A stretch of DNA of 64,000 bases from Candidatus Azambacteria bacterium (lineage in GTDB: Bacteria > Patescibacteriota > Minisyncoccia > GWC2-36-17 > WO2-46-25). Below are positions 4,235 through 34,260 of this stretch, one piece after another (the stretch's first letter is position 1; each line of letters opens with the position of its first letter). The stretch covers positions 5,801-69,800 of the forward strand of contig JACRAK010000019.1 of assembly GCA_016234725.1 (NCBI GenBank), read 5' to 3'. Made by a program: the position numbers and the translations under genes. Under the pieces are notes generated by a model, which was given only the letters and a program-made list of their open reading frames with translations, ran no database searches and was not told the origin of the DNA.

Positions 4235-5437
4235 ATGAAGGACTTGAAGATCTTCTCCGTTTCCGAATACGTGGAGCGCTTGAACGCGCTTTTATATGAA
4301 CACGATGCAGTGGTTGAAGGCGAGGTCTCGGAATATCGGGTCAACCAGCAAAAGTGGATATTTTTTAAGATCAAGGACGAAGGAGCGGTGCTCGAATGTT
4401 TCAGCACCGTGTTTCGCATCCGTGCACCGCTTGAAGACGGGATGCGCGTACGCGTCTATGGCAGGCCGGGCATTTATGCAAAAAGCGGGCGCTTGAGCAT
4501 GAACGTCGAATGGGCAGAGCCCGCGGGCGAGGGCGCGCTGAAGCGCGCGTTCGAGCTGTTGAAAGCGGAGCTTGAAAAAGAGGGGTTGTTCGCACAAGGC
4601 CGTAAGCGCCCATTGCCGAGCATTCCGAGGACGATAGGGCTTATCGCGTCGAAAGAATCCGCGGCATACGGCGACTTTTTGAAAGTATTGGGCCAGCGCT
4701 TCGGCGGACTCACGATATATGTCATGCATGTGCAGGTGCAGGGCGCGGAAGCGGTTTCGAATATCGCAGATGCATTCGCGTATTTCAATGCGCATCACAA
4801 AGAGCTCGGGCTTGATTGTATCGCGCTCATCCGCGGCGGCGGGTCGCTTGAAGATCTTGCGGCGTTCAATTCGCGCGAGGTGGCGTATGCGGTTTTTGGG
4901 TCCGTGGTGCCGGTGGTGGTGGGCGTGGGGCATGAGCAGGATGTTTCGATCGCCGATTTCGTCGCGGATCTTCGCGCATCAACGCCGTCAAATGCGGCGG
5001 AGCTTATGGTGCCGCACCGTGCCGATATCGCGCGGTTCGTCGATGCAATGGCAAACACCATGACGTATCAAATGGATACGCTCCAGAGCGACGCGCGAAC
5101 GCGCATCGATGATGCGGTGGGCGCGCTCGACGGGGTGGTAACGGCGCGGTCCCACGAGATAGGCCGGATGCAGGAGCGCATTTTCCTTCGTTTGAATTTT
5201 TTTCACGAGCGGACTATAATGCAGCGGTCAAAAATCGACGGGTTGGTCCGCTTGATGCGGAGTTTCAGCCCTCACGCGGTGCTTGAGCGGGGGTATGCGA
5301 TCGTGAAGAAAGGGGGCGAGGTGGTGTCAAGCATCCGCAATCTCAAGCCGAAAGATTTAGTGTATGTGGAATTGAAAGATGGTGGATTTTCTGCTAACGT
5401 ATTGAATCAGGAATCCAGAATCAGGAATGAAGAATAA
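4235..5437 (+). CDS. xseA: exodeoxyribonuclease VII large subunit
   Basis: 400 aa with an N-terminal OB fold and an ExoVII_L core (GGGS.EDL, RASTPS). The small-subunit gene follows directly. Confidence 0.85.
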   Translation: MKDLKIFSVSEYVERLNALLYEHDAVVEGEVSEYRVNQQKWIFFKIKDEGAVLECFSTVFRIRAPLEDGMRVRVYGRPGIYAKSGRLSMNVEWAEPAGEGALKRAFELLKAELEKEGLFAQGRKRPLPSIPRTIGLIASKESAAYGDFLKVLGQRFGGLTIYVMHVQVQGAEAVSNIADAFAYFNAHHKELGLDCIALIRGGGSLEDLAAFNSREVAYAVFGSVVPVVVGVGHEQDVSIADFVADLRASTPSNAAELMVPHRADIARFVDAMANTMTYQMDTLQSDARTRIDDAVGALDGVVTARSHEIGRMQERIFLRLNFFHERTIMQRSKIDGLVRLMRSFSPHAVLERGYAIVKKGGEVVSSIRNLKPKDLVYVELKDGGFSANVLNQESRIRNEE

Positions 5438-5476
5438 TCTGTGGCACACATTCATAATTCCTTATTCATAATTCAT
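5403..5476. repeat. intergenic tandem-octamer palindrome (gaatcagg x3, then the reverse complement attcctta/attcata)
   Basis: Read directly: gaatcaggaatccagaatcaggaatgaagaat ... cattcataattccttattcataattcat. Confidence 0.7.
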
Positions 5477-5678: not shown

Positions 5679-5680
5679 CC

Positions 5681-5760
5681 CATAAAGTCTCTAAAGTCGA
5701 AAGTCCATAAAGTGATGAATTTTACTTTTGACTTTAAGGACTTTACAGACTTTATTGACT
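5681..5760. repeat. intergenic tandem-octamer palindrome (cataaagt units, then actttaag/actttaca units)
   Basis: cataaagtctctaaagtcgaaagtccataaagt ... acttttgactttaaggactttacagactttatt. Confidence 0.7.
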
Positions 5761-5767
5761 TAATTCT

Positions 5768-6415
5768 ATGAAAGACCACATCGTTTTCGATCTGGAAACA
5801 CAGCATGAGTTTTCCGAAGTAGGAGGAAGGGACTATCCTCATTTATTGAAGGTGTCCGTGGTGGGGTGCTATTCATACGTGCAGGATAAATTTTTTACGT
5901 TCGAAGAGGCGGAGATCCCGGCATTTGAAGCGATGCTCAAAAACGCGGGGCTCGTCATCGGGTTCAATACGAAGTATTTTGATTACGCGGTTATCCAGCC
6001 GTATCTGAAAGAGGTGGTGATAAAAACATTGCCTGCATGCGACCTTATGGAGGATGTTACGAATGTGCTCGGCCATCGGCTTTCGCTTGATTCGATCGCG
6101 CAGGCGACGCTCGGTACGCAGAAAAGCGGGCACGGGCTTGATGCGATCCGCTATTTCCGGGAAGGGAACATGAAAAAGCTTAAAAGCTATTGTCTTGACG
6201 ATGTGCGCATTACCCGCGATATCTTCGAATACGGAAAAGAGCACGGCAATGTGAAATATAGCTCGAAATACAGCCCTGATCTGAATTCAGTTCCCGTGGA
6301 TTGGAAACAATACATTTCGCCTGCGGGCGAGCCTGTGTCTGCATCAGCATCCCTTTCCTCAGAAAAAGATGCGCCCTCGGTGAACCGCGAAACGGGAAAC
6401 TACTCTTTGTTTTGA
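5768..6415 (+). CDS. RNase H-like 3'-5' exonuclease family protein
   Basis: DEDD-like motifs (VFDLET, FN.KYFD, YCLDD) with a low-complexity C-terminal tail. Confidence 0.55.
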   Translation: MKDHIVFDLETQHEFSEVGGRDYPHLLKVSVVGCYSYVQDKFFTFEEAEIPAFEAMLKNAGLVIGFNTKYFDYAVIQPYLKEVVIKTLPACDLMEDVTNVLGHRLSLDSIAQATLGTQKSGHGLDAIRYFREGNMKKLKSYCLDDVRITRDIFEYGKEHGNVKYSSKYSPDLNSVPVDWKQYISPAGEPVSASASLSSEKDAPSVNRETGNYSLF

Positions 6416-6486
6416 GATCTTGAAACATGAATCTTGAAACTCGAATCTTATGTTTCGGGTTTCAGGTTTTACGTTTCAAGTTTTAA
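6415..6486. repeat. intergenic tandem-octamer palindrome (cttgaaac units, then gtttcagg/gtttcaag units)
   Basis: tcttgaaacatgaatcttgaaactcgaatc ... gtttcgggtttcaggttttacgtttcaagtt. Confidence 0.7.
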
Positions 6487-6491
6487 GCTTC

Positions 6492-7700
6492 ATGAAGCGA
6501 ATCTACCTCGATTATGCGGCGACAACGCCGGTCGATAAAAAAGTGCTTGCGGCCATAATGCCGTATTTTTCCGAGCGGTTCGGCAATCCATCATCGGTGC
6601 ACGGGTATGGGCAAGAGGCGCTCGTGGCGCTTGATCGCGCGCGCCACGCGGTGGCGGATATGCTCGGGTGTTTGAGCCAAGAAGTGATATTTACCGGTTC
6701 CGCGACAGAGGCAAATAATCTCGCGCTCGGCGGGGTTGTGCACCAAGCCCTGGAAAAGGGAAAGCCCGTGCACATCATCACCTCCTCGATAGAACACGAA
6801 TCGGTGGAAAACCCGCTCATGCAGCTTGCGCAGGGTCCGAATGTTTCGGTGACGCATATCCCTGTTTCTCGAGACGGGTTCATTGACTTGGATAAGTTTC
6901 AAAAAGCGCTTACCGGGCATACGGTGTTGGTTTCCGTTATCTATGCGAATAATGAGATCGGCACGACCCAGCCGATCTCCCGAATCGCGGATATCATACG
7001 AACGCATAATAAAAAGTTTCAGGTTTTCCCCCTGCGGGGGATCTCCCGAAGGGAGACAAGTTTCAAGTCCAAAGTTCTGTTCCACACCGATGCGGCACAG
7101 GCGGCATATTATCTGAACATGAAAACAGATGAGCTGGGCGTCGACCTGATGACGCTCTCCGGGCACAAGATGTACGCGCCCAAAGGCGTCGGAGTGTTGT
7201 ACGTGAAAAAAGGAACGCCGCTGACACCATTGATAGTGGGGAGCGGGCAGGAATACGGAAAACGGTCCGGTACGGAAAATATTCCCGGCATTGTGGGTAT
7301 GGGCGAGGCATGCGCGCAGATACAGGAAAATAAGGAAATAGTGGAAAAAATAAAAAAATTGCGCGACTATTTTATTGCAGAAGTGCTGGGGAAAATTAAT
7401 ATCGCCTCACTTAACGGCGCACAGGAAAATCGTTTACCGGGAAATGCGAACATGCTGTTTAAAGGCGTTCGTGCGCAGGATCTTATCGTGATGCTTGACG
7501 GCGAGGGGGTCGCGGTGTCTGCGGGGTCCGCGTGCCAGTCCAAGGCGCTTGCATTTTCGCACGTGCTTTCGGCGATCGGGCTTTCCGAGAAAGACGCGCG
7601 ATCGTCCATACGGTTCTCGTTCGGCAAATATACGACAAAAAAAGACATTGACTACACCGTTGCGGTCTTAGTAAAATTGATAAAAACATTATATAAATAA
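6492..7700 (+). CDS. cysteine desulfurase (IscS/NifS family, class V aminotransferase)
   Basis: RIYLDYAATTP, HTDAAQ, SGHKMY.PKG and the catalytic SAGSAC loop. Start chosen at MKRIYLDY; the upstream 14 codons lie in the repeat element. Confidence 0.85.
   Translation: MKRIYLDYAATTPVDKKVLAAIMPYFSERFGNPSSVHGYGQEALVALDRARHAVADMLGCLSQEVIFTGSATEANNLALGGVVHQALEKGKPVHIITSSIEHESVENPLMQLAQGPNVSVTHIPVSRDGFIDLDKFQKALTGHTVLVSVIYANNEIGTTQPISRIADIIRTHNKKFQVFPLRGISRRETSFKSKVLFHTDAAQAAYYLNMKTDELGVDLMTLSGHKMYAPKGVGVLYVKKGTPLTPLIVGSGQEYGKRSGTENIPGIVGMGEACAQIQENKEIVEKIKKLRDYFIAEVLGKINIASLNGAQENRLPGNANMLFKGVRAQDLIVMLDGEGVAVSAGSACQSKALAFSHVLSAIGLSEKDARSSIRFSFGKYTTKKDIDYTVAVLVKLIKTLYK
7016..7067 (+). repeat. 35-nt double-hairpin element (gttttccccctgcgggggatctcccgaagggagac) flanked by gtttcagg/gtttcaag, inserted in frame in the desulfurase CDS
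   Basis: Two hairpins, ccccc-tgc-ggggg and tctccc-gaa-gggaga. A near-identical copy (1 mismatch) lies at 16011-16045. It adds about 16 aa (FQVFPLRGISRRETSFK) before the conserved VLFHTDAAQ. Confidence 0.8.
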
Positions 7701-8968: not shown

Positions 8969-9180
8969 GAGCCGCGACTCGCTCCTCCCTTTCGATTCTT
9001 TCTTGCCCCGTCATTTGTTTATACATACACTGAATTACGTGTTTTATTAGCGATAGCATAATAAACGTGTAATTTAGAAAAAAGAGGAAGACGGGGCAAG
9101 AAAGAATCGAAAGGGAGGGGCTCGCTGGATTGCTGTTTGTTGCCAATCGTTTCACTCTTGGACAAACAGGGAACATCTCG
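8965..9180. repeat. composite intergenic repeat region
   Basis: A 31-bp inverted repeat (8982-9012 against 9090-9118, 29/31 bp) encloses an AT-rich loop. A copy of the dispersed 'cgattggcgacaaacagcagtccagcgag' family lies in reverse orientation at 9120-9170. Confidence 0.7.
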
Positions 9181-9224: not shown

Positions 9225-9243
9225 TATATACTGGAAATCATGG

Positions 9244-9310
9244 ATCTTGAACCCTGAACCTTGAAACCTGTTGTGTCAAATGTTTCAAGTTTCACGTTTC
9301 AAGTTTCAGG
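9244..9310. repeat. intergenic tandem-octamer palindrome (cttgaacc/cttgaaac, then gtttcaag x3)
   Basis: tcttgaaccctgaaccttgaaacctg ... gtttcaagtttcacgtttcaagtttcagg. It overlaps the first 15 codons of the annotated long ORF. Confidence 0.7.
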
Positions 9311-9315
9311 AATGT

Positions 9316-11937
9316 ATGCAATTCAACAAATTTACTACCAAAGCGCAGGAGGCTATCTTTAAAGCGCAGGAGATCGCGGGGGCGCATGCGCAATTTCAGG
9401 TGGATACGGTGCATCTGCTCGATGCGCTTATTCGGCAGGAGGATTCCGCGGTGCTCACGGTGCTTTACAAGCTCGGGGTGAATGTGGAGCTGCTCAAAGG
9501 GCAGGTGGATCGCGCGGTGGAAACGGGCGAAAAAAGCCAGGTGAATATCCCGTTCGGGCAGGTATATGTCACGGCGGAATTGGCTAAGGTGTTTGAAAAA
9601 TCGGTGCAGATCGCATCGGTCATGAAAGACGACTATATTTCCACCGAACATCTTTTCTTGTCGCTTCTTGAGATCGATTCGCGCGCGAAAACAGCGCTCA
9701 CCGGTTTTCATATCACGTCGGATGCGGTGCTCAAAACGCTGGCATCGGTGCGCGGCGCGCAGCGGGTGACCGATCCGGAACCGGAAGGCAAATATCAGGT
9801 GCTTGAAAAGTATGCGAAGAATCTTACGCAATTCGCGCGGGGAAAAAAGCTCGATCCGGTGATCGGCAGGGATGACGAGATACGGCGCATCATGCAGGTG
9901 CTTTCGCGCCGCACGAAGAACAACCCCGTACTCATCGGTGAGCCGGGAACCGGCAAGACCGCGATCGTGGAGGGGCTCGCCCAGCGCATCGTGAATGAAG
10001 ACGTTCCCGAGTCGCTCAAAGGCAAGGAGGTCATTTCGCTTGATCTCGGTTCGCTTGTCGCGGGCACGAAGTATCGCGGCGAATTCGAAGACCGGCTCAA
10101 AGCGGTGCTCAAAGAGATCACGCGCAATGCGGGGAAAATAATCCTTTTTATCGATGAACTGCATATGCTGGTGGGCGCGGGTGCGGCCGAGGGCGCGATC
10201 GACGCGGCGAATCTGTTAAAACCCGCGCTTGCGCGCGGCGAATTGCGCGCGGTCGGCGCGACCACGTTAAAGGAATATCAAAAGCACATCGAAAAAGATC
10301 AGGCGCTTGAGCGGCGCTTTCAGCCCATTGTGGTAAGCGAGCCGTCGGTGGAAGATACCATTGCGATCCTGCGCGGCATTAAGGAAAAATATGAAATGCA
10401 CCACGGCGTGCGCATCATGGACCCTGCGATCGTGGCGGCCGCGACCTTGTCGAGCCGGTACATTTCAGACAGGTTCCTCCCGGATAAAGCGGTGGACCTT
10501 ATCGACGAGGCGGCATCCGCTTTGCGCATGGAGATCGATTCAATGCCGCAAGACCTCGATCAGGCGAAGCGCGAAATGATGAAGCTTGAGATCGAACAGG
10601 AGGCATTGAAAAAGGAAACCGACCCCGTGTCAAAAGACCGGCTTAAGAACATCAAGCGCGCGCTTGCCGAATTGAAGGAAAAGACGAGCGACCTTGAGCT
10701 CCAGTGGAAAACGGAGCGAGATATCATTGCCGGAATTCGTGAATTCAAAAAAGAAGCGGATGCCTTGCGCCAACAAGCGGAAATAAAAGAGCGCGCCGCC
10801 GACCTGCAAAAGGTAGCGGAAATTCGATACGGAAAAATTCCCGACATAGAAAAAAAAATCGCGGCCCAAGAGACAAAGTTGAAACAAATGCAGAAATCGC
10901 GGCGTATTCTCAAAGAGGAGGTCTCTGAAGAAGATATTGCGAATGTGGTATCGAAATGGACGGGCATCCCGGTCTCAAAAATGCTCGCAGAAGAAGCGAA
11001 GCGCCTGCTTGATATGGAACAGGAACTGAAACGGCGCGTCGTGGGGCAAAGCGAAGCGATCACTGCGGTCGCGCATGCGATCCGCCGTTCGCGGGCGGGT
11101 ATTTCCGACAGGCGCAAACCGATCGGTACGTTCATGTTCCTTGGTCCCACGGGCGTGGGAAAAACCGAGCTTGCAAAAGCGATCGCGGAGTTTATGTTCC
11201 AGTCGGAAGGCGCGATGATACGGCTTGATATGTCCGAGTATATGGAGCGGCATTCCGCCGCGAAAATGATCGGGTCTCCGCCGGGGTATGTGGGGTATGA
11301 GGAAGGCGGCCAGCTTACGGAAATGGTGCGCCGCCGCCCGTATAGCGTGGTGCTGTTCGATGAGATAGAAAAAGCGCATCCCGAAACGTTCCATATGCTC
11401 CTGCAGATATTGGACGAGGGAACGCTGACCGACGCAAAAGGAAGGAAGGTGAATTTCAAAAACACGATCATCGTCATGACCTCCAATGTCGGTTCCGAGC
11501 TGATCGCGGAAGCGGGCACGCTCGGATTCACGGGTGAGAAAGGCGCGCGCGGGCTGACGTATGAGGAAATTTCAGACAGGGTGAAATCATCGCTCAAAGA
11601 GCATTTCCGCCCCGAGTTCCTGAATCGGCTCGATGAGATCGTGGTTTTTCACCAGCTTACGAAGGAGGATCTCATGGATATCGTGGATATCAATCTTGCA
11701 CGGGTTGCGGAAAATCTTGCCGAGCGGCAGATCAAAATAAAAGTAGGCAAAAAAGCGAAAGAGTTTTTGGTTGATGCGTGCAAGGACGTTCACTTTGGCG
11801 CGCGGCCTCTTCAGCGTCTTGTTGCGCAGTATGTGCTTGATCCTATTTCAGAAAAGATCCTCAAAGGAGAAATTATCGACGGCTCGTCTGTGCTCGTTGA
11901 CGCCAAGGATGGTACAATGGTGATAGAGGCGAAATAG
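9316..11937 (+). CDS. clpB: ATP-dependent chaperone ClpB
   Basis: Two AAA+ modules ([16 protein letters not shown]) and a middle coiled coil. Start chosen at MQFNKFT; the upstream in-frame codons are repeat sequence. Confidence 0.95.
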
Positions 11938-12812
11938 TGATCAAATGTTTTTGTGTTGCTCTTGCTTATGATCTTTTCTTGCCCCGTCTTTTATTTATAA
12001 ATATCAGGAAGACGGGATTGCGATTTGTGTCTGCGCACAATGCGCAGACAAATCGGGAATATCTTAATCCGCCAGTTGGTGGACATCCTTTCATTTCCGT
12101 TATGCTTATAGTTTTCTTTTCCTTTCTTTTCTGGCTCGTTGCAGAGCTTCGCATAACAGCGTTAAGCGAGAGTGTTTTTCCGCTCGTGATTTTGACATTG
12201 TTTGCATTTTCCGCAATGTGGTATCTTTCCGGGCGGTTCAATGTGTCCGTGCTCGCAGGCGTATACGGCGGTATTTCCGCGGCGCTTTTTTCGCTTGTCC
12301 CGAGCGGACTACCCGCGCACATCATCGCGGTGTGCGCTGCCGCAGGATGGTATGCGTTCATGCATGCCGTGGCTGAGCGCCGTCCTCGCGGCGCAGTGCT
12401 CGTTTCTTTTGTCGAGGTGTTTGTTCTTTATTTTGCGGTGCTCGCGTGGCACGCGTTTTCCCATATTTCCTTATTCCTTGCGCTTACCATGATAGCGCTT
12501 GGCACAGCGCTGATCTTTTTCAATTCGGTCACGGTCATGTGCGAGCTTGGCATGTGGCTGCGCGTGCGGTTGTTCATGTTTTCGCTTGGCGTCGGCGTGA
12601 TGATTGCCGAGCTGTTCGCGGTGCTCAGCAAGCTTCCGTTTCATATCGCGAACATCGACTTCCTCCTCTTTTTTGTCTATTATATAGTGTGGGACGTGAC
12701 CGTGCGGTATTTTTCCATCCGCTTTACCAAGCGCGCGCTTGCGGTCAATGTGCTGTTGCTTTTTTTGGGGTTTGGCACAGTGCTCGCTTCTGTGCGATGG
12801 CTCCCTGTTTGA
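11937..12812 (+). CDS. hypothetical integral membrane protein (more than 6 TM helices)
   Basis: Long hydrophobic ORF. The true start may be downstream, for example at MLIVFFSF near 12093. Confidence 0.45.
   Translation: MIKCFCVALAYDLFLPRLLFINIRKTGLRFVSAHNAQTNREYLNPPVGGHPFISVMLIVFFSFLFWLVAELRITALSESVFPLVILTLFAFSAMWYLSGRFNVSVLAGVYGGISAALFSLVPSGLPAHIIAVCAAAGWYAFMHAVAERRPRGAVLVSFVEVFVLYFAVLAWHAFSHISLFLALTMIALGTALIFFNSVTVMCELGMWLRVRLFMFSLGVGVMIAELFAVLSKLPFHIANIDFLLFFVYYIVWDVTVRYFSIRFTKRALAVNVLLLFLGFGTVLASVRWLPV
11982..12016. repeat. hairpin ccccgtctt-[tatttataaatatcagg]-aagacggg, member of the 'cttgccccgtc' family
   Basis: Shares cttttcttgccccgtc with 8995-9012. Confidence 0.6.
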
Positions 12813-12909: not shown

Positions 12910-13014
12910 CGCCATCGTCTCCATTTCTTCTTTTATCTTAACGGAAGCGCAGCCCTTCATTATATTTATAAAAAGGGCGTGAGAGGATTAAAGAAGAAAT
13001 GGAGACGATGGCGG
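12910..13014. repeat. 24-bp perfect inverted repeat (cgccatcgtctccatttcttcttt / aaagaagaaatggagacgatggcg) enclosing an AT-rich loop of about 55 nt
   Basis: Read directly. The loop contains 'tatatttataaaa', like the loops at 9013-9089 and 11991-12008. Confidence 0.75.
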
Positions 13015-13037: not shown

Positions 13038-13775
13038 ATGAAAAAAATAATTTTCTTTTTGTTTGTCTTTGTAGCAGCGAGTATGAGCGGGCTCGTGTCC
13101 GTATTATTCATTGCGCCGAAGCTTGCGGGAATCGCGCCATTTTCCAAAATGGCTTTTTTTAACGAGGGGCGCGATCAAACGGTTATCGTGAATAAGACGG
13201 AGCAGGTGGTGGTGGAACGAAACACCGCGTTTAAAAAAGCATATGAAAAAAACATTCCTGCGCTCGTGGCGGTCAAATTGATAAATAGCAGCGGCATTAC
13301 GCAAAGCATCGGCGCCGGTTTTATCGTGAGCGCGGACGGGCTGATACTTACGCGCCGCGAGTGGGTTGGCACGGGCCAGAAAACTACGATGATGGTAGTG
13401 CGCGGGAGTGAAGAAACGAAGGCGGAGATCGTAAGGGTCTCCGAAGAGAGCGGGCTTGCGTTGCTGAAAGTTAATGCGTCCGGTCTGCCGGTCGTGTCAT
13501 TTGCAAAAGATGTTGCAGGTCAATTGGGTGTTGAAGCGTTTCTTATCGGCACGAAACGCGGGAGTGCCGGTCAGATATCTTTTGTAAATACCGGTACGGT
13601 GAAAAGCGTGGACGGCAAAATGGTGGAAACGAATATCTACGAAGATTTCCGCATTGCGACTGGTACGCCGCTCGTGAACATCGAAGGGGATGTTATCGGC
13701 ATCAATTCCGTGAACTCTTCGGGGTATGTGTTTGCCATCGCTTCAGATGAGATCTCTCGTTTCTTGAGCATGTAG
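13038..13775 (+). CDS. secreted trypsin-like fold protein with degenerate catalytic triad (pseudo-protease)
   Basis: Signal peptide. Alignable to the HtrA protease domain (GAGFIVSADGLILT), but His, Asp and Ser are all replaced (TRREW; GLALLKV; ATGTPLVN). No PDZ domain. Confidence 0.55.
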   Translation: MKKIIFFLFVFVAASMSGLVSVLFIAPKLAGIAPFSKMAFFNEGRDQTVIVNKTEQVVVERNTAFKKAYEKNIPALVAVKLINSSGITQSIGAGFIVSADGLILTRREWVGTGQKTTMMVVRGSEETKAEIVRVSEESGLALLKVNASGLPVVSFAKDVAGQLGVEAFLIGTKRGSAGQISFVNTGTVKSVDGKMVETNIYEDFRIATGTPLVNIEGDVIGINSVNSSGYVFAIASDEISRFLSM

Positions 13776-13803
13776 TTTTGTTAATGTCCTAGGTACGCAC
13801 TTT

Positions 13804-14088
13804 TGGCGGTTTTGATCTCCCAAAGAAAACCGCGCGCAGGGCGAGCGAGCATGGTGCCGTTTCCTGTGTTTCATTCTTTAACCCGCTCGAGCATTCCAGC
13901 GATGCTCTCGCTTATGCTCGCCGCGTGATGGTGCGGTGGGCTACGCCATTATACCGCACCCTCCAAGCTCCACGCGGCTCCGCAGGTTAGCGAACAAAAC
14001 ACAGGAAACGGCGAGCGAGTCCGAGGTCGAGCGGCGCGTTCTCGCGGGGAACGCGAACGCGTGTTTTCTTTGGGAGATCAAAACCGCC
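13804..14088. repeat. MITE-like nested palindrome (26-bp perfect terminal inverted repeats, ggcggttttgatctcccaaagaaaac, about 230 bp apart)
   Basis: Outer inverted repeats at 13804-13829 and 14063-14088. Inner inverted repeats cgtttcctgtgtt / aacacaggaaacg and a central hairpin ggtgcggt...accgcacc. No ORF is credible across the palindromes. Confidence 0.65.
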
Positions 14089-14151
14089 ATATGTGCGCGC
14101 ATTATAGTAAGCACTTTCCGAGAGAAAATATTTCTGCCATAATAAAGACAT

Positions 14152-15018
14152 ATGATAAAAAAAGTCATCATTCCAGTCGCGGGGTTAGGCACGCGATTCC
14201 TTCCTGCCACAAAAGCACAGCCGAAAGAAATGCTGCCGATAGTGGACAAGCCCATCATTCAGTATCTGGTAGAGGAGGCGGTTGCCGCAGGGATCACCGA
14301 AGTGATCTTTGTGACGGGAAGAGGCAAGCGGGCGATCGAGGATCATTTCGATTATGCGTATGAGCTTGAGCAGGTATTGGCGCATCGGGGGAAAAAGGAA
14401 CTCATTCGAGCGATACGGGAAATTTCCAACCTTGCTTCTTTTGTATATGTGCGCCAAAAGGAACCGAAAGGGGACGGCGACGCATTGCTTGCCGCGGCGC
14501 ATATCGTGGGTGATGAGCCGTGCGCGGTGTTGTTTGGCGATGATATTGTCGACAGCAAAGTGCCGTGCTTGAAACAGATGATGGGAACGTTTGAAAAATA
14601 TAATGATCCGGTCGTAGCGCTTGAGGAAGTGAAGCAAGAGGAAACGTCGTTATACGGAATTGTGGGTACGACGAAAGTAGGCGAGCGCGTACATGAAATC
14701 AAGCACATCGTGGAAAAGCCGGCGCAAGGGAAAGCGCCATCTCGGCTCGCCATAGTAGGGAAATATATCATCACTAAAGATATCTTTCGCGAGCTTGAAA
14801 AGCTGAACCCAAAGAGTGGGGAGATCCGTCTTGCAGACGCGTTGAAGAATCATCTGACGCACGGCGCGGTGTACGGCTATCAATTCAAAGGTACGCGATA
14901 CGACTGCGGTTCAAAGATCGGCTTCTTAAAAGCGGTTGTTGACTTCGGTCTCAAGCACGAAGAGACCAAGCGCGAGTTCAAGCATTATCTCAATAAAAGA
15001 ATGCATCCGAACGGATAA
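14152..15018 (+). CDS. galU: UTP--glucose-1-phosphate uridylyltransferase
   Basis: KVIIPVAGLGTRFLPATKAQPKEMLPIVDKP N-terminal signature; 288 aa. Confidence 0.9.
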   Translation: MIKKVIIPVAGLGTRFLPATKAQPKEMLPIVDKPIIQYLVEEAVAAGITEVIFVTGRGKRAIEDHFDYAYELEQVLAHRGKKELIRAIREISNLASFVYVRQKEPKGDGDALLAAAHIVGDEPCAVLFGDDIVDSKVPCLKQMMGTFEKYNDPVVALEEVKQEETSLYGIVGTTKVGERVHEIKHIVEKPAQGKAPSRLAIVGKYIITKDIFRELEKLNPKSGEIRLADALKNHLTHGAVYGYQFKGTRYDCGSKIGFLKAVVDFGLKHEETKREFKHYLNKRMHPNG

Positions 15019-15134
15019 CGGAAATAGTCAAAACGTCGAGCCCTCGCTCGACTTTTTTGTTCTAGGTAAACCGTCATGTGTGTGTCATTTCCCAATGTTG
15101 ACTTTTCCTTTCCCTATCCATATACTCCTGCATA

Positions 15135-15916
15135 TGGATAATTTTGTTATTGCATCACTTAATGTTGGCGGGCATACGGAAGCGATGGACTTCGAGAAAA
15201 CCGACCAGTGGCATAAGCTCCTCGAGCTCACCTATGCGGCGTGGCGGGTGGCGGATATTGCCATCGAAAACGAGTTTCTCAAAAGCAAGGTAAAGCAAAC
15301 CGCAGCGGAGATCCTGGTGGAATATCCGAACGCGCTTGGTAATAGAATGAAAATGGAAGAGTTGTCTTCCCGCATCCGGTCCCAACGCGCACTTCTTTCG
15401 CTTGCGCAAAAGACAAGCAATTCACGCGAGCTCAATTTTACGATCTTAAAAAACGAATATCACAAAATTGGTACAGTGGTTACCCAGCTTATGCCTCCTG
15501 TGGCTACAGAACAGCACCATTATGGTGTTCCAAAAAAAGGAGCTCCCGTTTTGTCTGAATCCGCCGGCTGGCGGAGAAGTTACAAAACGCAGTCCAGCGA
15601 GGCCATAGGCCGAGTCGCGGCGGAGTCGCAAAAACAGCAAGAAAAGGTGGTTGATAATATGGTGGAAGTGCGCAGCGCAGAACGCCCGGAAACACATCGT
15701 GCTGAGCGCTCCGAGGTACTCACCGAACGCCAGAAAAAGATATTCCAGTTTTTCAGCAAAAGAAAGGGGGAAAAAATACGCTTAAAAGAGATCGCCCAGG
15801 TATTCCCGGATCTGACCGACAGGACGGTGCGCAATGATCTTCGAGACCTGTGTACGAAGAAACTCATAGTGCGATCGGATGGGCATGGGCAAGCAAGTTT
15901 CTACAAGTTGGTATAA
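15135..15916 (+). CDS. hypothetical protein with C-terminal winged-helix DNA-binding domain
   Basis: Start chosen at MDNFVIASL after the galU stop. The C-terminus (KIRLKEIAQVFPDLTDRTVRNDLRDL) is DeoR-like wHTH. A dispersed repeat copy at 15583-15629 is in frame. Confidence 0.45.
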
Positions 15917-15924
15917 AAAAATAA

Positions 15925-16110
15925 TAAGGAAGATAGGGAAGTTCCCTATGATAATAAGGAAATACCTTTTTTGAATAAGGAATTTCCTTTTTTATTCCCT
16001 ATCATTTCATGTTTTCCCCCTGCGGGGGATCTCCCGAAGAGAGACGGGTTCCATGTTTCATGATTCAAGTTCCATGATTCAGGTTCCCGGTTTTATGTTT
16101 CAGGGTCGTG
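15925..16110. repeat. compound intergenic repeat: aataagga palindrome, 35-nt double-hairpin element (16011-16045), then gttccatg/gtttcatg tandem units
   Basis: The copy of the element inserted in the desulfurase gene (7023-7057) differs by 1 nt. Confidence 0.75.
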
Positions 16111-16257
16111 TTTCCAGTTATCCACAATTGGTGATGTTGCGGTATTCCTGTGGGCACATGATTCCTGTATACTGGTAAGTAATGGCACAAATACTTTGTT
16201 TATTGATACGCTTTTAAGTCGGTTGTTTTAGCTATAGGTTTTGTGCGTTTGGAACGG

Positions 16258-16286
16258 TTGACCTTTATTTGTCTGTACTTTATAAT
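16258..16286 (+). promoter_or_regulatory. sigma70-type promoter (TTGACC, 17-nt spacer, TATAAT)
   Basis: Near-consensus -35 and -10 boxes with a 17-nt spacer, about 570 nt upstream of the 1154-aa surface protein start. Confidence 0.6.
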
Positions 16287-16292
16287 GGGGGA

Positions 16293-16857
16293 AAGTGAAT
16301 AGGGTGGTGCGAAGGCGCCATCCGTTCGTATTGGTTTGATGTCAGCTCTTATGCCGGCATCGCGTGGCGTGTGCCACGCGAGCCATGCTTGCATGAGAGG
16401 TGCCTTCAAATGAGACGATGGAAAAGCGATTGAAAAGGAAGAAACGCAAGATCATTGAAAAGTGAATAGGAAGAAAGGCAGAGTAACTTCCCTTTAAGTT
16501 TGTATATGATCTCGAAGAGAAAAGTCGGGTCGGTGTTATGCATCCTGAGCCTGTCCTGAGTTTATCGAAGGGCATGTCGAAGGGTTGCACAATAGAACTT
16601 GATTCTAATTTAAGATCATTCGGTCACGATGGTTATGGCTTGAACGAGAGCAGTCATTATTAATTTTTAAGTAACATAGGACTTACGCAGTTGGATGCAG
16701 TTCGAGGCGCAAGCGAGAAGCGACTGAGCCATACGCAGTAGTATGGTGATGGAGCTTCAAAGCGAAGCAACGAAGAAATGCACCGACTGCGTAAGTCCTA
16801 TAACAAAGCAGATTTCACTCACCGGAATGGTGGGCGGGTCTGCGTAAGCAAAGCATT
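16293..16857 (+). promoter_or_regulatory. long ORF-free 5' leader with structured elements, including a 15-bp perfect inverted repeat (16677-16691 / 16786-16800)
   Basis: About 565 nt with no credible ORF. taggacttacgcagt ... actgcgtaagtccta encloses about 95 nt. Candidate riboregulator or sRNA. Confidence 0.4.
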
Positions 16858-19800
16858 ATGAGTAATCAGCCTTTAGTAGGCCAGAATGCGAAAAAGAAAT
16901 TATCGCAATTTCTTTCCGCAACGCTTGCCTTCACAACGACTGTTTCATTGTCCGGCTTTGCCCTGATGTTCGCGTTCACCGCGAGCGCACAGGTTGCAAC
17001 GTTGTCAGACGGTGATGTGGTCAAGACCGCGGATAATCCCGATGTATACATCGTGAAGATGCATCCGCATGGTCAGTACGCGGGTTGGAAGCGTCTTATT
17101 CTCAACCCGGAAGTGTTCAATCTTTATGGACACCTCAAGTGGTCAAACATCAAGACGGTAAACCAGGCGACGGTTGATGCGTATCACACGTCTGCATTGG
17201 TACGAGGAGAGAATGATCCTAAGGTATATGTCTTGGCGCCAAACGGCGACGTAGGAACAAAAACCTGGATCACAAACGAAGCAGAGTTCCTCGCGGCAGG
17301 TTATGACTGGAGTCAGATCGCGCAGGTAAACAACAAAGAGCGCGACATGTACACGACTGCTGGTTCACAGCAGCAGGTACCGGCAGCGACAGGAACGGGC
17401 TTGATGGTATCGTTGGCGTCAAACACCGCGGCGGCAGGTTCTATCGTATCTGAGCTTACGGGCTCTGGTACTGGATTGACAGCAGACGGCGCACAGGCAC
17501 AGGTATCAATGCTCACCGCGAATTTCGCTGCGGGTTCAGATGGCGATGTAGCGGTAACGACATTGAAGGTAAAGAGAATGGGCATTTCAGCGGACGCTGA
17601 CATCGCGAATGCGTACTTGTACGATGGCGCGACCCGCGTTGCGGAAATGACCAACATCTCTTCAACCTACATTTCATTCGTGAATGCATCTGGTTTGTTC
17701 ACGGTTTCTCGTGGTACAAGCAAAGCGATCACGGTGAAGATGGATGTGGCAAATGGCACTTCAGCAGGCAAGACAATGGCGTTCGCGATCAACGTGGCAT
17801 CTGATGTTGTGGCTGGCACAGCTACGGTTTCAGGTTCATTCCCGATCGTGGGTAATGGCATGACGACCGCGAATGTTGGCGACCTTGGTAAGATCACGAT
17901 CGCAGACGTTTCGAGCTCAACTACCGTTGATCCGGGTCAGACCGGCTACGAAGTATGGAAGTTCAGCGTTGCGGCAGCGGACCAGAAAGTGAGTGTCTCC
18001 CATATTAAATTGACGAACGTCGGTTCAGTTGCGACAACTGACCTTACGAACATCAAATTGATGGACGGCGCGACACAGCTTGGCGCGACAGCGGCAACCC
18101 TTGCGGTTGACGGCACAGTGACATTCGACCTTTCTTCAAACCCGTTGGTTATCACCGCGGGCCAGACGAAAAACCTGAGCGTGAAAGCAGACATCGTCGG
18201 TGGTACGACTCGCACATTCCGCTTCTCTGTACAGAGATCAGCGGATATCGTAGCGATGGACACCAACTACGGTGTTTACCTTAAGCCAAACCAGACCGAC
18301 TCATTCTTGGTTATCCAACCGGCAGCAGCGACAACGATCAATTCAGGAACATTGACGATTTCAATTGATCCTGCATCGCCGACAGGCAATGTGGCGGCTG
18401 GTTACACCGACCAGGAATTGGCGCGGTTCGCTTTCAAAGCGTCCGGCGAGGCAGTGAAGGTTTCATCCCTCACCGCAACTTCAACCACGACTGGCACAGG
18501 AGGTTTGAACAACGCGAAGTTGTACTTGGATGGTACGCAGGTTGGCGCGACCGCTGACATTGCAACCACTCCGAACACGACATTCACTTTCGGCAATTCA
18601 TTCATCATTCCTGCGGGCGCGACCAAGACCTTGGTCATCAAAGCAGAGGTGAAGACAGCTGCAGGTGTTGCGTACAATGCGGGCGAAACTATTCAGGCGA
18701 AATTGGTTGCGGGTTCATTGAACGCGCAGGGCCAAACCTCAATGACTTCGATCAGTACGTCAGCGGCAAACGGCAACACCTTGACGGTGCAGACCGGCTT
18801 GTTGACGACATCAGCAAACACTGGATTGGCAAATGCAACTACTGCGTTGCCGACTGGTGTTAAGGGCTCAACAAACGTGAAGATTGCATCATTCGTGATC
18901 ACCGCAGGCTCGGGTGAAGGCGCTGATGTAAGCCAGATCGTAGTCAAAAACGGTGCGACAGAAGTGGCGCTTGGCCGCGACTTCCAGAACTTGACATTGA
19001 AGAGCGGTTCAAGCCAGATCGGCACGACCGTTGGTACATTGTCAACAACTGCAGCTAATACCTACACGTTCAATCCGTCTCCTGCGATCAGCATCAACGC
19101 TGGCCAGCAGTACGTAGTTGATGTGTACGCAGATGTGTTAAGCAGCGCGTCAAACGCGTATGCGGTGGGCACCGGTGTTGTGCACACGCCGGTTATTCTT
19201 GACAGCGTGACCGCAACTAGCAAATCAACCAATAGCGACGCAAGCGACGCGACCGACCGGAACGGTCAGAGCGTGTTCATTGCGCTCGCAGGTTCGTTGA
19301 CGGTAGCGGCGGCGTCCGACATGCCGATCGCACAGAACCGCGCAATGGGCCAGACAGGCCAGACCTTGGCAACCTTCAAGTTGACCACAGGCACTCCTGA
19401 AGCGGTGAACATCTCAAGCATCACGGTAACTGACCTGTTGTCGGCGACCGCGACTGCGGCGACCGGTTCGGTAACGAATCTTTCGTTGTGGAATTCTGCA
19501 GGCGTACAGGTTGGCTCAACGGTTGCTTCTATGAGCAGCTCGGCAGTCGGCTTGAACGTGCTCGCGACCTTCAATGGTCTTACGCTGAACGTTGCAAAAG
19601 ATAAGTCAGAAGTGTTGACCTTGAAAGGCGACATGAACACCTATCCGAACGCAGTGTCAGGTAGCGCGCACATGTTCAAAGTGCAGGGCAATGGCGATGT
19701 AACGGCAGTTGGCGCGACGTCAGGCCAGACCATCGCAATGACCGGCGCGGCGATCTCGGGTAATAACCAGAGAGTGTATCGCGCAGAGCTCACCGTCGCA

Positions 19801-23907: not shown

Positions 23908-23948
23908 TACTTTATACTTTTAAACCCTTAAACATTTAAACTTTTCCC

Positions 23949-24419: not shown

Positions 24420-24482
24420 CCACTAATTTTTTAAACCCTTATACTGTTAGACATTTGAACTTTATATCTTTAAACTAAATCT

Positions 24483-34178: not shown

Positions 34179-34260
34179 GAATCATGAATCAGGAATTATG
34201 AATAAAAAGCAGGATGTGCTATCCTTGATTCTTGATCCGCTATTCCTAATTCTTGACCAA
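34178..34260. repeat. intergenic tandem-octamer palindrome (gaatcatgaatcaggaat … attcttgatccgctattcctaattcttga)
   Basis: Same gaatcagg unit family as 5403-5476. Confidence 0.7.

Follow-up and report, generated by a model that had tools for sequence, protein, structure and literature searches.

The double hairpin at the iscS locus

We analysed a 64,000-nt stretch of DNA from Candidatus Azambacteria bacterium (contig JACRAK010000019.1), referred to here as the window, in which a short palindromic element, a 30-nt double hairpin, lies inside a cysteine desulfurase gene and recurs once in intergenic DNA. The host gene occupies 6492..7700 on the + strand and encodes an intact IscS/NifS-type cysteine desulfurase of 402 residues. 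Among structures in the PDB, its product best matches IscS/NFS1 (E = 7e-87); it is 100% identical to an NCBI 'Candidatus Azambacteria bacterium' cysteine desulfurase, and the Lys226 that binds pyridoxal phosphate is invariant, together with Cys348, His102, Asp200 and Gln203, in our alignment of homologues (alignment A1). AlphaFold2 produced a model with a predicted template modelling score (pTM) of 0.87, in which residues 178-191 have a per-residue confidence (pLDDT) below 50 and form a loop between helix 162-176 and strand 196-200, the latter leading into the HTDAAQ motif; solved IscS homologues show a gap at this position in the PDB alignment. The 30-mer in IscS is an in-frame addition of exactly 10 codons to a loop that this model leaves disordered. 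A preliminary description of this DNA, made from the sequence alone, had proposed that the palindrome preserves the reading frame and had asked whether it lies in a surface loop; the open reading frame (ORF) is indeed full-length with its catalytic residues conserved, and the insert falls within the loop left disordered by AlphaFold2.

Copy 1 of the element spans 7027..7056 (+ strand), is translated in frame as (F)PLRGISRRE(T), and consists of one hairpin at 7027-7041 (TCCCCC-TGC-GGGGGA) and a second at 7042-7056 (TCTCCC-GAA-GGGAGA). Copy 2, which is intergenic, spans 16015..16044 on the same strand and is identical at 29 of 30 positions, the sole difference being a mismatch in the stem of the second hairpin (GAGAGA). 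Two hairpins had been noted previously; when folded as DNA, each strand gives a neighbouring pair of them, with stems of 6 bp and loops of 3 nt (-10.2 and -10.4 kcal/mol, z ~ -2.4). The 35-mer that had first drawn attention was found again at exactly 7023-7057 without mismatch and at 16011-16045 with one, both on the + strand; the window has no third site within 3 mismatches, and none arose in 100 shuffles. The length of 35 nt had to be revised: the unit proper comprises 30 nt, and the G-TTT and C at its sides are part of a heptamer from the array around it. The repeat common to both sites is longer, extending over 52 nt (7017-7068 and 16005-16056) at 88% identity. A structure-based scan of the window returned two doublets in total, copies 1 and 2, which share the same stem and loop variant, a coincidence with an estimated chance of ~0.014 given the frequencies in the wider family.

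We compared both sites with syntenic contigs of relatives at 81-85% protein identity, codon by codon in the case of iscS. In the window, the iscS site reads AAAAAG TTTCAGG TTT, followed by the two hairpins TCCCCCTGCGGGGGA TCTCCCGAAGGGAGA and then by CAAG TTTCAAG TCCAAAG. Two relatives (L001, L002) carry four heptamers here (TTCCAAG TTTCAGG TTCCAAG TTTCAGG), giving KKFQVSGSKFQV, and no palindrome, and two others (L006, L007) have a single heptamer unit (AAT AAA AAA TCC CAG GTT TTG TTC CAC). By the same comparison, in-frame heptamer units adjoin copy 1 on the left at 7013..7026 (AAAGTTT CAGGTTT) and on the right at 7057..7077 (CAAGTTT CAAGTCC AAAGTTC), all on the + strand. The iscS site thus has two layers, a heptamer array common to relatives and a 30-nt double hairpin in the window genome only. 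Relative to L001 and L002 the gene has gained 30 nt at an unchanged heptamer count, and the desulfurase measures 402 residues in the window, 392 in P0004, P0006 and P0008, and 384 in minimal relatives. More distant homologues have other array-like inserts at the same position (KLKTKSYKLKT, and long ones in P0044, P0045 and P0022). Copy 2 likewise splits a heptamer of an array, with a single left-hand unit identified by repeat analysis (TTTCATG TTT; 16005-16014, + strand) and the remainder of the array, CGGG TTCCATG TTTCATG ATTCAAG and further units, at 16045..16125 (+ strand); the orthologous spacers of L003 and L006 (alignment A2) contain the array with another number of units and without the 30-mer. 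Our structure-based scan found no doublet in 83 kb of syntenic relatives.

From these alignments, the insert is lineage-specific, the syntenic relatives being empty at both sites despite the same gene order, as had been anticipated. The roughly 16 residues ascribed to the insert hold as a total (about 16-17), but the palindrome contributes 10 of them and the array ~7-8. Similarly, the gtttcagg and gtttcaag units interpreted as flanks of the element are present, yet they constitute a separate heptamer array that also occurs in relatives without the palindrome; the finding that was to count against the earlier interpretation, an insert in relatives lacking the palindromic signature, therefore applies to the heptamer part, not to the 30-mer.

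Heptamer units of the iscS type also occur in intergenic arrays of the window at 6459-6497, 9282-9306 and 16048-16107. More generally, many spacers consist of periodic repeats of 7-8 nt (5438-5474, 5680-5767, 6412-6494, 9241-9310, 15917-16003, 16045-16125, 23908-23948, 24420-24482 and 34179-34259), often inverted so as to form long hairpins that reach the next start codon. The unit sequence varies between spacers and the unit number between orthologous arrays of relatives. Comparable in-frame arrays exist in iscS and in host genes elsewhere, such as CCAGCTA/CAAGCTA in the leucyl-tRNA synthetase (LeuRS) gene of L094. These spacer arrays recall the heptamer repeats of cyanobacteria known as short tandemly repeated repetitive (STRR) sequences.

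A dispersed and structurally constrained 30-bp family

We scanned a collection of species-representative genomes with a degenerate two-hairpin pattern, TCYCCCNNNGGGRGATCYCCCNNNGRGRGA, in which both loops were left free. At least 117 stretches of these genomes match, and a majority of the matches listed are labelled as Patescibacteria or the Candidate Phyla Radiation (CPR), among them Saccharibacteria, Azam-, Nomura-, Kuenen-, Specht-, Doudna-, Berkel-, Jorgensen-, Nealson-, Staskawicz- and Liptonbacteria, Parcubacteria and Patescibacteria; a minority of those listed have other or no taxon labels, taken as given in the records. The scan, wider than the search of the genome or bin called for by the preliminary description, revealed a dispersed family, and the 30-mer was seen in hundreds of independent assemblies from different projects. 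Viral contigs in IMG/VR gave 0 matches to the pattern. Within the window, Rfam recognised a tRNA and nothing else, with no match at E <= 0.1 in 13700-17000, and full-text literature searches, including one for the motif itself, returned no description of the motif or the concept, in line with the earlier statement that no such element is established for this lineage.

The family consensus is ttG-TCYCCC-TNC-GGGRGA-TCYCCC-GNA-GGGRGA-Caa. We derived statistics on stems, loops and flanks from 100 CPR-type copies. Stem position 3/13 is a T-A or C-G pair in 96-99 of the 100, chosen independently in each hairpin, and compensated stem variants such as TCTGCC/GGCAGA and TGTCCC/GGGACA occur. Loop 1 is T-N-C throughout the 100, as the pattern that selected them demanded, and TTT or a like loop is seen in a few copies outside this set; in loop 2 the bases are G-N-A or A-N-A. 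Although the scan left both loops free, no copy has the two loop types in the opposite order, and this includes the loop variants outside the 100. The flanks are less strict, with TTG on the left in 76/82/54% and CAA on the right in 59/83/64% of copies, position by position. Across these copies, the stems covary within each hairpin and the structure is under selection.

The two 15-bp halves are mutual inverted repeats except for the central loop base, and the element contains nothing else. We considered that it might form one long hairpin or cruciform of 13-15 bp, but the independent choice of T-A or C-G would break such a long stem in about half of the copies, which rules it out in favour of two small hairpins. 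A larger element with split ends was also considered and dismissed: isolated 15-nt hairpins were not found, every apparent single having a partner hairpin with a compensated variant stem.

It was conceivable that the palindrome in the window is a local accident or artefact, be it a palindrome arisen by chance, replication slippage within the heptamer array or a chimeric assembly. Its location in a slippage-prone array and the presence of two copies only in the window would fit such an origin. Zero copies are expected by chance, however, and neither the occurrence of the same 30-mer in hundreds of independent assemblies nor the covariation pattern with its constant flanks would be expected of an artefact. 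We regard this explanation as extremely unlikely, and as effectively refuted by the family scan and the nuclease-linked copies described below.

The 30-mer frequently resides in coding sequence. It contains no stop codon in any of its six frames, three of which read SPxGRSPxGR, LPxGDLPxGD and (V/I)(S/P)LR(E/G)I(S/P)RR(E/G)T, and the residues it adds are hydrophilic and rich in Pro, Gly, Ser and Arg. For half of the CPR-type copies (50/100), the frame stays open over 40 codons or more to either side, and the element is found in both orientations relative to genes. All ten host ORFs tested, namely RelA/SpoT, LeuRS, two other class-I aminoacyl-tRNA synthetases, UvrA, UvrB, UvrD, RecG, Wzy_C and DUF2079, are genuine genes in which Pfam domains lie both before and after the element, and solved UvrB structures show a clean 11-residue gap exactly at ..IPLRGISRRET... 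As 30 nt correspond to ten codons and all six frames are free of stops, insertion into a coding sequence in either orientation only adds ten residues, and this accounts for the tolerance of genes towards the element. Genes for DNA repair (UvrA, UvrB, UvrC, UvrD, RecG) seem conspicuous among the hosts. In a UvrC-like ORF of L038 (4180-4246) two elements stand in tandem with one heptamer between them, and a single UvrB gene of L106 contains two separate elements, at 5291 and 6472.

The mode of insertion can be read from interrupted tRNA sequences for which the locus also has an uninterrupted counterpart. When 10 nt from each side are joined, 15 sites match the uninterrupted tRNA at 18 or more of 20 bases. 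The insertion points lie in the anticodon loop (GTCTG^CAAAAC), the D loop (GTAGC^CAAGT) and the T loop (GGTT^CAAGTCC). Based on these reconstructions, exactly 30 bp are inserted between a ..TTG-like base and CAA, and the target is not duplicated. At 2310-2575 of L132 we observed four tandem 66-nt units, each made up of a 30-mer, then the 20 nt of tRNA-Cys that run from the T loop to its end, and finally a spacer with GGGTG as its last bases; they look like the outcome of repeated rounds of insertion and copying at the T-loop TG^CAA site.

These junctions bear on a second explanation, in which the 30-mer is a classical miniature inverted-repeat transposable element (MITE), with 15-bp terminal inverted repeats and a transposase making 7-bp staggered cuts, and the arrays represent target-site duplications that accumulated after loss of the core. 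Left and right flanking 7-mers match each other far above permutation at k = 7 only (3.25 versus 2.42 matches, z = 8.0), and 28 of 95 copies match at 5 or more of 7 positions; in one permutation, 6 of 95 did. Arrangements of the form [7][30][7][30][7] in L038 and L028, single perfect 7-nt repeats flanking the element in L072 and L107, and the resemblance of array units to the flank consensus would fit this scheme as well. However, 20 of the 28 high-scoring cases sit inside periodic heptamer arrays, a context in which any insertion point yields matching 7-mers, so that the k = 7 signal is largely array-derived. Furthermore, the 15 known empty sites show exact insertion without duplication, and iscS has gained 30 nt rather than 37, which would have shifted the frame, with the number of heptamers unchanged; a 7-bp duplication with arrays as excision footprints is contradicted by both. 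Orthologous sites have arrays without the element, and in the neighbourhoods of the copies no transposase gene stands next to any of them, the linked gene encoding a GIY-YIG nuclease instead. We therefore consider a MITE distinctly unlikely.

A linked GIY-YIG nuclease and tRNA-Cys cassette

Only one gene consistently adjoins the element. Among the element-selected loci, tRNA-Cys(GCA) is present in 12 of 117 (counted on the matches listed), and four of them (L040, L100, L031, L021) share a common layout: a 5' part of tRNA-Cys, a 30-mer, an intact tRNA-Cys with a small ORF in either order, and another 30-mer, which in L040, L100 and L031 is followed by the 3' part of tRNA-Cys. The small ORF encodes a stand-alone GIY-YIG domain of ~85 residues (PF01541, E 1e-12 to 2e-18), and in these ORFs, which belong to genomes other than that of the window, the catalytic residues Y6, Y17, G19, R27, H31 and E63 are invariant. 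Nine of ten stand-alone GIY-YIG ORFs in element-selected loci lie no more than 170 nt from a 30-mer. In an Azambacteria locus (L205), two identical 30-mers, each in the context GGTCTG^CAAAAC, bracket the nuclease and a tRNA-Cys within a split older tRNA-Cys.

For a reciprocal test, we picked 80 metagenome loci solely because they encode a relative of the nuclease, using a search from a 4-sequence alignment. In 33 of the 54 evaluable close relatives a doublet ends 6-43 nt upstream of the start codon, and in 41 of the 54 one is present within ~220 nt. Among distant relatives a doublet was found in 1 of 22 (L188), and this is a different doublet, of the TCCGCC type, on both sides. The GIY-YIG ORF abuts or overlaps tRNA-Cys(GCA) in 45 of 48 loci. 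In distant relatives the neighbouring tRNA is a different one. Homologues of the nuclease with a named source come from CPR lineages throughout, Azambacteria included. In L188, the distant nuclease relative lies by tRNA-Ser(GCT) and is bracketed, at 2-31 and 374-403, by the double hairpin TCCGCCGGAGGCGGA TCCGCCTATGGCGGA, a hint that hairpin type and nuclease clade co-vary.

The physical linkage of the 30-mer to the GIY-YIG/tRNA cassette is tight, and from it we infer that the nuclease mobilises the element. The family, for its part, is dispersed and structurally constrained, with exact insertion and presence/absence between relatives. Together, these observations make it probable, in our view, that 7027-7056 represents a non-autonomous member of a 30-bp selfish palindromic element that is associated with GIY-YIG and widespread in the CPR. 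The element would be the cis-acting site of a small cassette, itself present in many CPR genomes and composed of the 30-mer, the ~85-residue GIY-YIG gene, tRNA-Cys and often another 30-mer, while solo 30-mers, both window copies included, would be non-autonomous and spread in trans through a cut by the nuclease and subsequent repair copying from another copy. Such copying could draw its homology from short flanking sequences common to both places, for instance tRNA loops or heptamer arrays; 52 nt, heptamers included, are common to the two window copies. In the window genome, the element landed in a heptamer repeat that already filled the disordered IscS loop and in a similar array 9 kb away; it would have no function for IscS.

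A further-reaching proposal, which we find plausible without going so far as to call it probable, is that the 30-mer is the cis-site of an unrecognised class of bacterial mobile elements driven by a minimal ~85-residue GIY-YIG nuclease. Its autonomous form would be a ~400-bp cassette of 30-mer, nuclease gene, tRNA-Cys and 30-mer living in tRNA genes, and its non-autonomous form the bare 30-bp double hairpin, rendered harmless in any frame by its length and codon content, a property that would let it colonise essential genes across the CPR. CPR rRNA genes have been reported to contain GIY-YIG ORFs in non-intron insertions, along with many short uncharacterised insertions (PMC11270868). The element may be one source of such short rRNA insertions and of the many lineage-specific protein insertions in the CPR, and the 7-nt arrays may be where it prefers to land or a by-product of it.

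Several observations weigh against a selfish, nuclease-driven element. The window contains no GIY-YIG gene, as judged by jackhmmer on ORFs of at least 50 residues and by tblastn. The 85-residue GIY-YIG domain comes without an obvious DNA-recognition module, and its role is read from linkage only. Copies within one genome, for example in JAHJCN01, are non-identical and thus give no sign of recent bursts. Array context explains the 7-nt direct-repeat signal at the flanks in part, but not the perfect single repeats in L072 and L107, which lie outside arrays. Near-invariance of 30 bp across a superphylum is unusual for a selfish repeat and would fit recognition by a conserved host protein too, and the dyad symmetry of conserved loop bases that hairpins do not need hints at protein binding. 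Finally, some matches have the record labels 'uncultured Gammaproteobacteria', Methanoregula or Erysipelotrichaceae. Twelve loci titled 'uncultured Gammaproteobacteria' have the CPR-type element (L009, L021, L022, L048, L050, L057, L058, L060, L069, L073, L077, L086); in L021 a GIY-YIG ORF also adjoins tRNA-Cys, and in L050 the element lies 10 nt upstream of tRNA-Cys inside a cluster of 25 tRNA genes. The titles of these records may be wrong.

The points on sequence invariance lead to the main alternative, namely that the 30-mer is a dyad-symmetric recognition site useful to the host, bound by a conserved CPR protein such as a nucleoid, replication or repair factor, a DNA-uptake receptor or a restriction-type enzyme, kept by selection and spread by recombination, with the IscS copy as a tolerated location. 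Very distant CPR lineages indeed have an almost invariant 30-mer, its conserved loop bases T..C and G..A are dyad-symmetric without being required for hairpins, its centre is GATC, and viral contigs gave no copies. On the other hand, the density (2 per 64 kb in the window, 0 over the 83 kb examined in syntenic relatives) is far below that of uptake sequences, copies arise by exact 30-bp insertion rather than by point mutation, and half of them lie within coding sequence at non-homologous places. The covariation favours intrastrand hairpins, and both the nuclease linkage and the cassettes bounded by two copies mark a mobile element. A host site is unlikely for these reasons. A DNA uptake sequence in particular (DUS or USS, uptake signal sequence), with its 9-12-nt core, ~1 copy per kb and origin by substitution, was rejected for a 30-nt unit that is present at 2 per 64 kb and inserted exactly.

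Another explanation assigns the element a role in RNA, where it could direct processing or stability, act in the manner of a terminator, or be cut like an intron from mRNA and tRNA precursors. The element has two stable hairpins kept by covariation, resides in loops of tRNA-derived sequences and is located 6-20 nt upstream of the GIY-YIG start codon, where expression control is possible. It has no Rfam match, however; its symmetry is the same on either strand, and genes contain it in one orientation as well as the other. A length of 3n and six stop-free frames are expected of a translated sequence and needless in an excised one, and every interrupted tRNA fragment with a reconstructable empty site is accompanied by an intact tRNA copy in the same locus. 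An intrinsic terminator was dismissed, since the element is followed by CAA or GAA instead of a T-run and half of the copies lie inside ORFs, including mid-gene positions in essential genes. Overall, a function in RNA appears very unlikely.

Relation to known systems and other features of the window

The preliminary description had compared the palindrome to Rickettsia palindromic elements (RPEs), which are ~100-150 bp long, restricted to Rickettsia and, to our knowledge, without an identified mobilising gene. With regard to behaviour, the comparison has proved apt: both are palindromes dispersed in non-coding DNA and, in frame, in genes, where RPEs typically occupy tolerant surface regions, both are present or absent between relatives, and both inhabit the reduced genomes of host-dependent bacteria. 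A mobile palindrome tolerated in frame within a protein, as proposed earlier, agrees well with the dispersed family, the empty sites in relatives and the many housekeeping hosts. The likeness ends at size, lineage and linked gene, as the CPR element has 30 bp, two minimal hairpins, a distribution across the CPR, a ..TTG^CAA.. context and a connection to the GIY-YIG/tRNA cassette; it is set apart from RPEs by its size and its host lineage, here Candidatus Azambacteria.

Repetitive extragenic palindromes (REPs) and the REPINs formed by them, which depend on REP-associated tyrosine transposases (RAYTs), are also short hairpin repeats (20-40 nt) arranged as inverted doublets with a conserved short flank, and they too are paired with a protein from a single gene located at another place in the genome. 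REPs, however, are extragenic, have a 5' GTAG-type tetranucleotide and a Y1 (IS200/IS605-type) transposase as partner, whereas half of the CPR copies are intragenic, their flank is TTG/CAA without GTAG and the linked gene encodes a GIY-YIG nuclease. MITEs such as the Correia elements of Neisseria are likewise small, non-autonomous, scattered repeats with inverted termini, but they derive from transposase-encoding insertion sequences and make target-site duplications, none of which are seen at the known empty sites of the CPR element.

Nearest in form are mitochondrial elements, namely the GC clusters of yeast var1, the double-hairpin elements (DHEs) of Allomyces and the repetitive hairpin-forming elements of sponges (PMC2800124). 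These are GC-rich single or double hairpins of tens of bases that are mobile in a small, AT-richer genome, sometimes in frame in coding genes and near endonuclease ORFs; they differ in being organellar, heterogeneous and often accompanied by target duplications, in contrast to one sharply conserved chromosomal 30-mer. Free-standing GIY-YIG homing genes offer another comparison, both those of the Seg/I-TevI type in phage T4 and the fungal mitochondrial ORFs that have a partial copy of the invaded gene. The CPR cassette resembles them in its intact Y, Y, G, R, H and E residues, its location in a conserved tRNA-Cys and the partial tRNA-Cys duplications beside it. It differs in that its protein has ~85 residues and no DNA-binding domain, and in that the bounding 30-mer also exists as hundreds of solo copies, a combination of bounded cassette and solo copies that is not described for known homing endonuclease genes. 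The element is thus best characterised as a short palindromic mobile repeat tolerated in genes, with a new candidate mobilising enzyme, and is apparently undescribed.

A large part of bacterial diversity belongs to the CPR, or Patescibacteria, whose genomes are tiny and not regarded as repeat-rich. Additions of ten residues in UvrA, UvrB, UvrD, RecG, RelA, aminoacyl-tRNA synthetases and IscS would constitute a general source of protein-length variation so far unaccounted for, and the element would bring alignment gaps and annotation noise to these genomes. Its GIY-YIG link offers a testable candidate for a mobilising enzyme, which RPEs have lacked for 25 years, and an 85-residue nuclease together with a sharply defined 30-bp palindrome is an attractive minimal system for biochemistry. 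The motif could also be used as a simple marker of CPR DNA and for strain-level typing by presence or absence.

Elsewhere in the window, a segment of ~300 nt at 13796-14097 is bounded by terminal inverted repeats of 35 nt (94% complementary), with another inverted repeat of 31 nt nested inside; the segment gave no Rfam match and is missing from the orthologous spacer of L003-L006, which identifies it as a lineage-specific insertion. Present in its arms are GATCTCCCAAAG and CTTTGGGAGATC, both similar to one stem of the 30-mer. The non-coding stretch 16110-16340, which closely follows copy 2 on its downstream side, is strongly conserved in L003 and L006 and includes a perfect DnaA-box consensus, TTATCCACA, at 16118-16126; the GC skew shows no switch within the window. 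The ClpB-like gene at 9271-11937 is flanked by near-perfect long hairpins at 8981-9121, 11965-11990 and 12910-13013 (32-nt arms at 97% and 28-nt arms at 96%), and the arm sequence of the hairpin at 8981-9121 recurs downstream of the gene.

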